In this document: piece by piece, positions 653-4,547 of the stretch | Numbering within the stretch: position 1 is the stretch's first letter | How the letters are laid out: every line of letters begins with the position of its first letter | From: Candidatus Heimdallarchaeota archaeon | GTDB lineage: Archaea > Asgardarchaeota > Heimdallarchaeia > JABLTI01 | Assembly (NCBI GenBank): GCA_030614005.1 | Contig: JAUWKS010000111.1 | Location: 1 to 5,636 of the forward strand | Length of the DNA: 5,636 bases | Direction: 5' to 3' | Notes under the pieces: generated by a model | The model's input: the letters and a program-made list of their open reading frames with translations, nothing else | What the model was told of the DNA's origin: nothing | Database searches by the model: none | Translations under genes and position numbers: made by a program

Positions 653-1627
653 TTATAGAAGTTTGTCGGCGAAAAACTTTAACATTTTGATTCCTCGAAT
701 CTCTCTATCAAAAGCGTCAACAGAAGTAATATTATCCTTCCCAAAAACTGATTCAATATATTTTATGTTTTTCAAATGCTCTTTGTGTCTATGAGAACAG
801 TATTGGCAATCAGGATTATCAGGGTTTATCATATTTACTACAACGAATTCATGTGCAATCGAATGAGAATCTAGTTCTTCAACTAGTCTTTCAGTTTCAA
901 AGATACTCATCATTGTTGGGATCATAACTTTAACGAACTGCGTTCTGTCTTGATCCATAAGCTGATCTCTTGCTATGAGTACTTTTTCTTTCATAATCTC
1001 TAAATTCTCAATAGTATTATCCTTTTCTCCCTTTGCACCAAAAAGAGACTTCATCATGGTCATTGCATTAGATAGAAAAGAACGCATTTTCAACATTCTC
1101 CCAAGGAATGAATCAAGGAATTCGGGAATGTTTAGAAGTCTTAGAGTATGCCCAGTAGGTGCTGTATCGAGAATAATTGTATCATATGAATCATCATCGG
1201 CGTACTCAAGAATTTTCGCAAAAGATAAAGCTTCATCCATACCTGGTTGTGGCAGGGATTGCATATCTTGACCCAATCCCTGTAATTCAGATAATCCAGG
1301 AATATTTGTTAAATTTGAGAAATCACTAGAATCCATTGGTTTACCTATAACTTTTGAGATCTCATCTCCTGCTTTTTCAGGGTTAATTTCCAAAGCATAT
1401 AGTTCACCCTTTACTCCTTTAACTTTCTCAATTTCTCCGCTTGAGAAATCTAAATCGAATGAATCGGAGACACTATGAGCTGGATCTGTAGAGATGATTA
1501 GAACTCTTTTACCATTTTTTGCTAGAGAAATTGCTAATGATGAAGCAACGCTTGTTTTCCCCACTCCTCCTTTCCCTCCAACTAAAATAAATTTAAGATC
1601 CATCTCTAAAAGTTCAGTAAGTGTCAT
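653..1627 (-). CDS. get3: ArsA/Get3(TRC40)-family ATPase, single-domain Get3-type (324 aa)
   Basis: It has the deviant Walker A GGKGGVGKT, switch I STDPAHS, PGMDEALSF, switch II DTAPTGHTLR and a Met-rich helix LGRMLKMRSFLSNAMTMMKSLFG. FETERL, CQYC (its only two Cys) and a C-terminal EIRG follow. Confidence 0.88.
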   Translation of the reverse strand: MTLTELLEMDLKFILVGGKGGVGKTSVASSLAISLAKNGKRVLIISTDPAHSVSDSFDLDFSSGEIEKVKGVKGELYALEINPEKAGDEISKVIGKPMDSSDFSNLTNIPGLSELQGLGQDMQSLPQPGMDEALSFAKILEYADDDSYDTIILDTAPTGHTLRLLNIPEFLDSFLGRMLKMRSFLSNAMTMMKSLFGAKGEKDNTIENLEIMKEKVLIARDQLMDQDRTQFVKVMIPTMMSIFETERLVEELDSHSIAHEFVVVNMINPDNPDCQYCSHRHKEHLKNIKYIESVFGKDNITSVDAFDREIRGIKMLKFFADKLL

Positions 1628-1649
1628 AATATTTTTTAAATAACAGCTA

Positions 1650-1657
1650 TATATAAA
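1650..1657 (-). promoter_or_regulatory. Archaeal TATA box (TTTATATA) for get3, leaderless spacing
   Basis: Consensus archaeal TATA at -30..-23 from the A of the get3 ATG (1627). Confidence 0.65.
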
Positions 1658-1667
1658 GAATAAGATT

Positions 1668-1694
1668 CAGAAAAAATAATTAGGGAAGAAATGA
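1668..1694 (-). terminator. Candidate archaeal oligo-T terminator after the TRAP-beta-like gene
   Basis: The minus strand reads TCATTTCTTCCCTAATTATTTTTTCTG immediately after the stop. It is pyrimidine-rich with a T6 run. Confidence 0.35.
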
Positions 1695-2459
1695 TTATCT
1701 TCTTTTCTCAATTTTTCTTTTTTCTCCTTTCTTACTTTTATGTTTTTCAGCCATGGTAAATTTGCGTCTTCTGGATTTACCTTTGTGTACTTTTTGAATA
1801 GCAAATCTATCTACCAAAACCACAGTTCCGAGTACTCCTACTACACCTAAACAGAAATACAAAATGTTCAACCATAAATCAGCTTCAAGAACATATTCCT
1901 CTTCAATATCTTCAACGAATAAGCTAAATCTCTGAGAACTGGAGAAATATTCAATTCCTGTCCCATTTACGTAAGTTACAGTAGTAGCCTCTAAAGTGAA
2001 ATTGCCTTCTATTTTCGGTTGGAAGAAGTAAAAATAGAAAATTGTTGCATTAACATCAACTTGAATATATCTTTGAGTTGTCAAGTTAAGATTTCCTACT
2101 GCCCATTCCTCGAAACTTGGATCAACTGTGGTTAGATTATAAGCAGATGCGTTACCCACGTTAGTGATAGTCAAATTAACTCTTATCCACTCGTTTGGCC
2201 TAATTAGGTGTGAACTTATCTCTTGATTTTCATCCTGGATTGGAGTTGCATTGATTGACTTTTCAACAATCAAAATTGGACGATTTCTTAGAGTCTCATT
2301 TTCTTGGTCTAAATTAGGATTAATTACTGTTTGTTGAAAATCTTCAACTCTTATTAAGTTCCCAGTTATGGGAGCTGCGTTAAGCGACCTTGATACAGGA
2401 AGTCCAATGAATAGTAGCGAGATGAACAAGGCTAAACTGATCGTGAATTTCTTTTGCAT
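1695..2459 (-). CDS. Type I single-pass membrane glycoprotein resembling translocon-associated protein beta (TRAP-beta/SSR2) (254 aa)
   Basis: It has an N-terminal signal peptide (about aa 1-28, LNA|AP) and one Ig-like domain with ILIVEKSI, VNLTITNVGNASAYNLTTVDPSF and QPKIEGNFTLEATTVTY. These parallel the recalled eukaryotic SSR2 segments [28 protein letters not shown] and RPLKAGYFNFTSATITY. A C-terminal TM (about aa 195-216) and a basic tail follow. An in-frame TAG at 2483-2481 fixes the start. Confidence 0.6.
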   Translation of the reverse strand: MQKKFTISLALFISLLFIGLPVSRSLNAAPITGNLIRVEDFQQTVINPNLDQENETLRNRPILIVEKSINATPIQDENQEISSHLIRPNEWIRVNLTITNVGNASAYNLTTVDPSFEEWAVGNLNLTTQRYIQVDVNATIFYFYFFQPKIEGNFTLEATTVTYVNGTGIEYFSSSQRFSLFVEDIEEEYVLEADLWLNILYFCLGVVGVLGTVVLVDRFAIQKVHKGKSRRRKFTMAEKHKSKKGEKRKIEKRR

Positions 2460-2687: not shown

Positions 2688-2691
2688 AATG

Positions 2692-2699
2692 TTTAATAA
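2692..2699 (+). promoter_or_regulatory. Archaeal TATA box (TTTAATAA) for degV1, leaderless spacing
   Basis: It lies at -30..-23 from the ATG at 2722, the same spacing as the get3 promoter. Confidence 0.55.
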
Positions 2700-2721
2700 A
2701 AACCTCATTCTTTTGCACTTT

Positions 2722-3609
2722 ATGACCGTTAAAATTATCTGTGACACTAGTGCAGACTTGAATTTGCCTAATGATACTACTCTATATGAAAAATACGACA
2801 TTGAATGGGTACCAATGAATGTAATGTTTGGAACTACTGAGTATAAAGAGCTTATTGATTTGAAACCATCTGGTTTTTACAAACTTGTTCATGAAACTAC
2901 CGAACACCCTACAACATCACAATCTACTCAACACGATCTACTTACTGCTTATGAGAAACATGGTACCAAATATGATGAAATCATATCAATACATATTTCT
3001 AGTGCATTAAGTGGAGCTTATGCCAATGCTATGATGGCAAAAAAAATGTACAAAAGAAAGAATCCTGATGGCGCTGTAATACACGTGTTTGATTCCAAAC
3101 AAGCAAGTGTTCCATTTGGTTTGATTGCAATTAAAGCTGCACAACTTGCAAAACAAGGTTTGAATGCTGAAGCCATTATTGAGAAACTTACCTATTTCTT
3201 TGAAAATGATGATGTAATGTACTTTACTGTTAAAGACATTAAATGGTTATTTGAAGGTGGCAGACTAAGCCGAGCTAAGTATGTTCTTGGAAAGATGTTG
3301 AATGTAAATCCTATTCTTACTTTAATTGATGGAAAAATAGAATCAGTTGGGAAAGGATCAGGACTTGTTAAAACTCTCGACACAATGCTAGAAATGGCTC
3401 TAGACAACTTGGATAGGGATGTTGATAATATCACTATTCACTTCATTGAGGCTGAAACAAGAGCTGAAATTGAAGAGTATATTGGACGTTTGAAAGAAAA
3501 TTATCCTTCAATTAAGATAGGAGAAATATTCACTCTAGGTGGAACAATCTGTGCTCACACTGGTCCAGGTACTATAGTACTAATGGCTACAAGGAATTTT
3601 GAGTATTAA
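2722..3609 (+). CDS. degV: DegV/FakB-family fatty-acid-binding protein (paralog 1, 295 aa)
   Basis: Motifs VKIICDTSAD, PTTSQ, ISSALSGAY, DSKQAS, EGGRL and AHTGPG are present. The start is moved from the ORF-track 2689 to ATG 2722, because DegV proteins begin at MxxKIxxD, the paralog begins MTVKI, and the TATA spacing fits 2722. Confidence 0.93.
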   Translation: MTVKIICDTSADLNLPNDTTLYEKYDIEWVPMNVMFGTTEYKELIDLKPSGFYKLVHETTEHPTTSQSTQHDLLTAYEKHGTKYDEIISIHISSALSGAYANAMMAKKMYKRKNPDGAVIHVFDSKQASVPFGLIAIKAAQLAKQGLNAEAIIEKLTYFFENDDVMYFTVKDIKWLFEGGRLSRAKYVLGKMLNVNPILTLIDGKIESVGKGSGLVKTLDTMLEMALDNLDRDVDNITIHFIEAETRAEIEEYIGRLKENYPSIKIGEIFTLGGTICAHTGPGTIVLMATRNFEY

Positions 3610-3632
3610 TCAAAATGAGTAAGGTTTAAAAC

Positions 3633-3651
3633 TTTCTCTTTTTTTTCTTTT
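3633..3651 (+). terminator. Oligo-T (pyrimidine) terminator candidate after degV1
   Basis: TTTCTCTTTTTTTTCTTTT starts 24 nt after the stop. This is typical of archaeal intrinsic terminators. Confidence 0.5.
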
Positions 3652-3668
3652 AATCGTAGGTTGTTTAT

Positions 3669-4547
3669 TTGACTGTAAAAATAATGACAGATAGTGCTGC
3701 AGATATTCCGAAAAAATATCTCGAGAAATATGATATAAGAACTGTTCCAACTGTAATTCGTTTTGGAGATGAAATTTATTACGAAAATGAAGATATAAAT
3801 CTTGAACAGTTTTATGAAAAATTCTTTAATTCAGAAACATATCCTCAGACTGCAAACCCAACGTTACATCATCAATTTTCTTTATACGAGGAATTAGGGA
3901 AACAGTCAGATGATATATTGAACATTGTGATATCTTCTGGTATTTCAGGATCCTATAATACTGCTCAGATTGCTCATCGGAATTATAAACGTAGAGTTGA
4001 AAATCCATCTGATATACACATTTATGATTCTAAGTTTGCCACATTTGGAATAGGGATTCTAGCCATAAGAGCAGCAGAGATGGCTAAAAAAGGACACAGT
4101 GTTGAAGAGATTTTATCTATGTTAGATGATTTTCAATCTTCATTGCAGATAGGTTTCACAGTTGAGAATCTCAAGTATCTTCATCGAGGTGGGAGATTAA
4201 GTTTATCCAAATATTGGGTAGCTAAAATCTCAGACATGAAGCCTGTGATCAATTTTATTGATGGAAAAATGGAAGTTATCAAAACAGTGAGAGGGCATGC
4301 TCCTGCAGTTATCGAATCATTCAATTCAGTTTATGATAAAATAGGAAGACCTAGTAAATTCAATGCATATGTAATGCATGCAAGAAATGAAGAGTCAGCT
4401 CAATTAATTAAGGAGCATATCGAAAATCAAATTCAACCTGATGATTGGAATATATCTATTAGAGAAGTAGGAATGGCAATCGCAACACATGCTGGACCTG
4501 GATGTATTGGAATATGCATAGATGCAAAATACAAGTTTTTAGAATAG
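3669..4547 (+). CDS. degV: DegV/FakB-family fatty-acid-binding protein (paralog 2, 292 aa, TTG start)
   Basis: Motifs VKIMTDSAAD, PQTANP, ISSGISGSY, DSKFAT, LKYLHRGGRL, KPVI and THAGPG are present. An AGGT SD-like element lies upstream of the TTG. Confidence 0.93.
   Translation: MTVKIMTDSAADIPKKYLEKYDIRTVPTVIRFGDEIYYENEDINLEQFYEKFFNSETYPQTANPTLHHQFSLYEELGKQSDDILNIVISSGISGSYNTAQIAHRNYKRRVENPSDIHIYDSKFATFGIGILAIRAAEMAKKGHSVEEILSMLDDFQSSLQIGFTVENLKYLHRGGRLSLSKYWVAKISDMKPVINFIDGKMEVIKTVRGHAPAVIESFNSVYDKIGRPSKFNAYVMHARNEESAQLIKEHIENQIQPDDWNISIREVGMAIATHAGPGCIGICIDAKYKFLE

Follow-up and report, generated by a model that had tools for sequence, protein, structure and literature searches.

The contig JAUWKS010000111.1 of a Candidatus Heimdallarchaeota archaeon (assembly GCA_030614005.1; contig C32 of bin G000 in our numbering), analyzed over its whole length of 5,636 nt and called the window below, carries the gene of a membrane protein similar to TRAP-beta directly upstream of the gene of a Get3/TRC40-type ATPase. 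In eukaryotes TRAP assists Sec61 in co-translational translocation and Get3/TRC40 delivers tail-anchored proteins, and even there the function of TRAP is poorly understood. We consider it rather probable that selection has kept the two genes together and that the window shows the pair as it occurs in Heimdallarchaeaceae, an Asgard homolog of TRAP-beta with the single Get3 of the lineage.

Both genes lie on the minus strand, the TRAP-beta-like open reading frame (ORF) at 1695-2459 and get3 at 653-1627, and the spacer of 67 nt between them occupies 1628-1694, just as the original prediction, made from the sequence alone, had described them. We surveyed 41 relatives at the class level. A match to the membrane protein was present in 35 genomes, and 29 loci were fetched. 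The Get3 gene adjoins the TRAP-beta-like gene in 27 of these, and the other two loci are too short to judge. Families are designated below by f-numbers, which stand for GTDB families: f2 is Heimdallarchaeaceae, f3 is Hodarchaeales (including B3_Heim), and f9 is Wukongarchaeia.

Identity of the two proteins

The upstream gene codes for a protein of 254 amino acids (aa) whose close relatives come from Candidatus Heimdallarchaeaceae. It matches the TRAP_beta family PF05753 with 41.7 bits at a cut-off of 22.4 (E 1.1e-10, profile positions 26-161 of 178), and the same family was found on 48 of the 50 relatives listed. The match to BatD reaches 20.1 bits and stays under its cut-off of 24.1. When PDB was searched with a profile of 45 relatives, only TRAP-beta chains were significant (8b6l_F, 8b5l_v, and 8bf9_B, E about 3e-7), and the next match, with E 0.084, was five orders of magnitude weaker. 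Foldseek placed TRAP-beta chains at ranks 1-5 (E 9e-9 to 5e-8, target TM-score 0.62-0.69), followed by TRAP-alpha chains at about 1.6e-5 and then by C3 MG and CARDB domains at 4e-5 or weaker. The original prediction had noticed TRAP-beta-like motifs and topology in this protein and had named generic S-layer, DUF11, or BatD domains as the structural matches that would speak against it. The Pfam, profile, and fold searches agree on TRAP-beta, whose chains are the best structural matches.

The AlphaFold2 (AF2) model of the protein has a mean predicted local distance difference test (pLDDT) score of 74, mostly above 90 in the immunoglobulin (Ig)-like core, and contains helices at residues 2-25 and 193-225 and a beta-sandwich at residues 63-182. 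Taken together, the sequence and the model predict a type I topology with an N-terminal signal peptide (residues ~1-28), an Ig-like ectodomain (residues ~60-185) in which 9 N-x-S/T sequons were counted, one C-terminal transmembrane (TM) helix, and a basic cytosolic tail. The codons of the TM helix lie at 1812-1871 on the minus strand (residues 197-216) and form a hydrophobic stretch, helical in the AF2 model, after residue W196, which is nearly invariant in the alignment of homologs. The codons of the tail occupy 1698-1811 on the same strand (residues 217-254, 38 residues). According to the alignment, a long tail rich in Lys and Arg is present only in the window protein and its f2 orthologs, and the tails of other families have 3-16 residues.

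Eukaryotic TRAP-beta (SSR2; 8B5L chain v, 8B6L chain F, and 8BTK chain TB) shares with the archaeal protein the signal peptide, the one non-cytosolic Ig-like beta-sandwich, the single C-terminal TM helix, and the basic cytosolic tail. However, the identity to the solved TRAP-beta chains is ~14-15%. The archaeal protein is larger (254 aa versus 183 aa), its N-terminal linker is longer, and its tail has 38 residues. It would also reside in the plasma membrane, whereas eukaryotic TRAP-beta resides in the endoplasmic reticulum (ER). Judged by its sequence and predicted fold, the membrane protein is TRAP-beta-like. We also considered it as a client of Get3 and ruled this out, because a protein with an N-terminal signal peptide is not tail-anchored. 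A search of its own genome with the Pfam TRAP_alpha and TRAP-gamma models gave no match, and the controls were equally silent everywhere. At the level of the phylum, the top scores for PF05753 belong to multidomain proteins of 460-1300 aa from the Thor and Loki lineages.

The downstream gene codes for a single-domain ATPase of 324 aa. It matches PF02374 with 276.5 bits over residues 12-323 and TIGR00345 (GET3/ArsA/TRC40) with 270 bits at a cut-off of 135, and its best relatives in PDB are ArsA1 of Chlamydomonas, the Get3 proteins of M. thermautotrophicus, M. jannaschii, and S. pombe, and human ASNA1. The P-loop GGKGGVGKT, a deviant Walker A motif (residues 17-25, 1553-1579 on the minus strand), is invariant among the homologs. 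The same is true for C274 and C277 of the CxxC motif (residues 274-277, 797-808 on the minus strand) in 30 Get3 sequences, and this motif coincides in the alignment with the CxxC of S. pombe Get3 and human ASNA1. The helical Met-rich TRC40 insert (residues ~175-205, RMLKMRSFLSNAMTMMKSLF...), which in Get3/TRC40 forms the groove for the client, aligns without gaps to S. pombe Get3 and human ASNA1. The single domain with a deviant Walker A motif, the CxxC, and the Met-rich insert are shared with archaeal (3ZQ6, 3UG6) and eukaryotic (2WOO, 6SO5) members of Get3/TRC40. On these sequence features the ATPase is of the Get3 type, in agreement with the original prediction.

An arsenic-resistance ArsA was also considered for this gene. 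E. coli ArsA (1F48) has the P-loop superfamily and PF02374 in common with the window protein, but it consists of two fused domains and belongs to an ars operon, whereas the window protein has a single domain and the window has no ars genes. The score of the window protein against the arsenical-pump equivalog TIGR04291, 124.9 bits, is far under the cut-off of 650, and its match to E. coli ArsA (110 bits) is much weaker than those to the single-domain proteins (181-221 bits). The single domain, the low TIGR04291 score, and the weaker 1F48 match rule out the ArsA reading, and the context of an ars operon is ruled out by the neighbours in the window, which are TatD, DegV, and HAD genes.

The window protein differs from eukaryotic Get3 in the ELYEDF stretch, which we take to be the contact site for Get1/Get2 in yeast structures and a mark of eukaryotic receptor use rather than of the family. 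The window Get3 has IESVFGKD at this position (residues 291-298), and S. pombe and human proteins have EELYEDF and EDLYEDF. In the same alignment columns the acidic stretch is absent from Get3 of Heimdallarchaeaceae and f4, and archaeal Get3 structures likewise have none. The proteins of Hodarchaeales, Wukongarchaeia, f15, and f22 have an acidic D/E-L/Y-Y-x-D/E-F there, for example KDLYDEF and EEYYDDF. No genes for Get1/Get2, Get4/5, or Sgt2 lie near get3 of the window. Each complete or near-complete genome of the Heimdall class encodes one full-length Get3, and it is the one adjoining the TRAP-beta-like gene.

Conservation and arrangement of the pair

The two genes are adjacent in every Heimdallarchaeia family with a judgeable locus, and outside the class they stand in tandem in f9 (labelled Wukongarchaeota), f15, and f22, the last with a gap of 15 nt. 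The original prediction had pointed to synteny in relatives as a check, and the adjacency is found there, within the class and in these three families beyond it. The mutual orientation of the genes is variable. In Heimdallarchaeaceae they are in tandem with a gap of 46-114 nt, and the whole block tatD-get3-trapB-degV is retained. The tandem pair of f4 has a 4-nt overlap in two loci and an 8-nt gap in another, and the tandem genes of f6 also overlap. The pair is divergent in Hodarchaeales, with 83-248 nt between the genes, and convergent in f1 and f7. By their sequence arrangement the overlapping pairs of some lineages appear operon-like.

The surroundings of the pair were compared by clustering of the flanking ORFs in 17 loci. 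No gene other than these two occurs in every locus, and every other neighbour spans at most four families. The recurrent neighbours are a beta-CASP nuclease, pilins, MCP, and a tRNA endonuclease, which are unrelated to membrane-protein biogenesis. With ~3,000 genes per genome, the odds of chance adjacency are near 1 in 1,500 for each genome. The adjacency is far beyond chance, real, and robust. Shared descent accounts for the origin of the pair, but it does not account for its survival amid reshuffled surroundings.

On the minus strand, the spacer of the window (1628-1694) contains a T6 tract (1671-1676) and, ~25 nt before the ATG of get3 (1627-1625), the TATA-like TTTATATATA (1648-1657). T-tracts and a TTTATATAT / TTTAAATAT element precede get3 in eight further loci of Heimdallarchaeaceae. 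The caveat already raised in the original prediction, that get3 has a TATA box of its own and is preceded by a T-tract, thus applies throughout these loci. We infer that in Heimdallarchaeaceae the T-tract serves as a terminator and the TATA-like box as the promoter of get3, which suggests separate transcripts for the two genes. With T-tracts and a conserved TATA-like box in front of get3, we doubt that the genes are co-transcribed in this family.

Beyond these lineages we followed both genes separately. No Get3 lies within ~6 kb of the short TRAP-beta-like genes in Njordarchaeales (f24), Borrarchaeum (f20), f21, and f26, or of the genes for PF05753 proteins of 460-1300 aa in f17, Thor (f11), and Loki (f14, f27). 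From the side of Get3, no PF05753 match was found near it in representative Loki, Thor, and Njord genomes.

Neighbouring genes and a second pair in the bin

The third minus-strand gene of the window is a truncated TatD-like gene at 25-612. Its ORF has 195 aa, while relatives have ~267 aa; it is alignable up to residue 187 and then diverges, and its stop is 24 nt from the contig end. This is probably an artefact of the assembly end rather than a real truncation. On the plus strand, two tandem genes of the DegV/FakB type (PF02645, 229 and 248 bits) occupy 2689-4547. The same strand carries an HAD hydrolase gene and the beginning of a gene for a membrane protein. The bin has at least 15 DegV loci beyond the two of the window, which is unusually many for an archaeal genome. 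Neither the Rfam scan nor the tRNA scan gave a match in the window.

The bin holds two TRAP-beta-like/Get3 pairs, one on the window contig C32 and another at G000:C82:43767-46800. Orthologs of the window pair were detected only in f2 (38-48% for the membrane protein and 64-78% for Get3), and the bin's own genus, g1, carries the different pair located on C82. Contig C32 is probably mis-binned from a co-occurring Heimdallarchaeaceae population, because its orthologs are restricted to f2, g1 has a pair of its own, and complete relatives have one Get3. Composition cannot decide the bin membership: the GC contents compared are 0.333 and 0.335, and the tetranucleotide distance is typical of random windows.

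In genus g1 the TRAP_beta domain forms the C-terminal part (residues ~353-499) of a 507-aa protein. In the g1 pair (locus L079, which is G000:C82:39300-51700, at 4456-7505, and locus L074) the gene of this protein is convergent to that of a 40%-identical Get3, with a conserved 91-aa ORF between the two genes. An EMC3/Get1-like gene lies 15 kb from the C82 pair. A small soluble protein of ~90 aa is encoded near the pair in four families (L079:5585-5860, L036:2546-2812, L050:8935-9207, and L034:11145-11402). It has a conserved C-terminal G-I-S/A-D-N-S/T-I-A-T-I/L-R, its gene often adjoins that of the beta-CASP nuclease, and it has no Pfam match. Its look-alikes by language model are CDC48 N-terminal-like proteins, which may serve as a lead.

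Possible meaning of the pairing

In the mechanism that we propose, the TRAP-beta-like protein would be exported via its signal peptide, probably N-glycosylated, and anchored by the C-terminal helix with the Ig-like domain outside the cell. By analogy with eukaryotes, its place would presumably be beside the SecY/Sec61 channel. Get3 would act in the cytosol as a dimeric ATPase, zinc-linked through the CxxC, which captures tail-anchored proteins and passes them on to an EMC3/Get1-like insertase of the membrane whose gene lies elsewhere. Both proteins would then belong to one process, membrane-protein biogenesis, either cooperating in it or being co-regulated, although in Heimdallarchaeaceae get3 probably has its own promoter.

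Several observations weigh against this reading. Adjacency by itself does not prove a shared function, nor is it evidence of a joint machine. The convergent and divergent lineages exclude co-transcription of the pair there, and in the window the two genes are parted by the T-tract and the conserved TATA-like box. The two genes are apart in those Loki, Thor, Njord, and Borr genomes that were checked. The original prediction had proposed to look nearby for Get1/EMC3/Oxa1-like insertases, SecY, and other TRAP subunits; genes for a Get1/EMC3-like protein, SecY, or a further TRAP subunit were not found near the window pair, and in complete relatives the distance from the pair to the EMC3/Get1-like gene exceeds 1 Mb. 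The cytosolic tail is very short in f4 (3-9 residues) and has ~10 residues in Hodarchaeales. Finally, PF05753 also matches multidomain proteins of 460-1300 aa annotated by NCBI as BatD family and is found in Methanosarcina acetivorans.

The last observation raises the question of whether the membrane protein is a translocon component at all. It could be a generic Ig-like surface protein of the BatD, DUF11, or CARDB type, and then the framing by two ER routes would be misplaced. The weak BatD match, the name "BatD family protein" given by NCBI to relatives, the presence of PF05753 on large Loki and Thor multidomain proteins and in Methanosarcina, and the CARDB and C3 MG domains lower in the fold list all agree with this. 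Since PF05753 occurs in Methanosarcina also, the Pfam match alone is no proof of orthology, and the TRAP_beta domain is wider than TRAP-beta proper. However, the short single-pass form fits TRAP-beta best: TRAP-beta chains are on top by sequence profile with the wide gap to the next match described above, they surpass generic Ig domains in the fold search by ~3 orders of magnitude, and the protein has the size and topology of TRAP-beta. Published reciprocal HHpred searches gave the same assignment (PMC11186639). We therefore regard a generic surface protein as very improbable. The two genes could also have become neighbours once in a Heimdall-related ancestor and have remained unseparated since, without any functional link. 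Related lineages inherit a common gene order, Loki, Thor, Njord, and Borr do not have the pair, the convergent and divergent forms of the pair rule out a shared transcript, and get3 of the window has its own promoter-like element, all of which is consistent with neutral inheritance. Against it stand the reshuffling of all other neighbours between families, at least three orientation changes that the pair has outlasted, and its tightening to overlapping genes in several lineages, and we find such an explanation unlikely.

The opposite extreme is a direct partnership, in which the TRAP-beta-like protein is a docking partner or co-receptor of Get3 and ties the delivery of tail-anchored proteins to the site of the Sec translocon. 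The contact could be made by the basic cytosolic tail, by analogy with the basic Get2/CAML motif that tethers Get3. The pairing is indeed tight and long-lived, up to 4-nt overlaps; complete genomes have one copy each of Get3 and the short TRAP-beta-like gene; Heimdallarchaeaceae have a strongly basic tail; and Get3 of Hodarchaeales, Wukong, f15, and f22 has the acidic E-L/Y-Y-x-D-F at the ELYEDF position, presumably a site of contact. But the window Get3 has ESVFGKD there, and the length of the tail does not co-vary with the ELYEDF-type motif. The tail is long only in Heimdallarchaeaceae and very short in f4, which argues against a universal tail-mediated contact, and the literature search revealed no link of TRAP to Get3/TRC40 by binding in eukaryotes. 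Co-folding of the Get3 dimer with tail residues 215-254 gave a score of 0.00, which is no answer and speaks neither for nor against binding. To our knowledge, no membrane receptor has been established for archaeal Get3, and we know of no binding of eukaryotic TRAP to Get3/TRC40. We regard a direct partnership as improbable. An ancestral physical partnership with Get3, later split into the TRAP and GET routes at the ER, would be a novel form of this idea, and it seems to us equally doubtful. As for the original prediction, its identities of both proteins, the adjacency, and the promoter caveat have held, while the mechanistic joining of two insertion routes and the role of a membrane partner for Get3 have not been borne out.

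Members of both families had been reported from Asgard archaea before, as the original prediction had stated, and Get3 of archaea in general is well known. Homologs of TRAP-alpha, TRAP-beta, and TRAP-gamma have been published (Eme et al. 2023, PMC10307638; Lewis and Hegde 2024, PMC11186639; Carilo et al. 2024, PMC11417166); these TRAP/translocon homologs are of the same protein family and from the same archaeal group as the window protein and were reported as eukaryotic-signature proteins. Get3/ArsA has been listed among the Asgard-eukaryote structural clusters. Text searches of PMC10307638, PMC11186639, and PMC11417166 found no gene neighbourhood and no Get3/ArsA beside TRAP-beta, and a literature search found no paper in which TRAP-beta and Get3 are connected, either as neighbouring genes or as binding partners. 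The conserved adjacency, of which the original prediction knew no description, is the part that we did not find in print.

We know of no eukaryotic counterpart to the placement of TRAP-beta beside get3. The Heimdall-related Asgard archaea include the closest known relatives of eukaryotes, and a pair kept through repeated rearrangement in this group provides a concrete and cheaply testable hypothesis. It raises the question: Does Get3 work together with, or is it co-regulated with, an accessory protein of the translocon? If it does, this would bear on the origin of the protein-insertion routes of the ER. Should the two genes be unlinked in function, their pairing would remain of use for marking Heimdall-related lineages by synteny.

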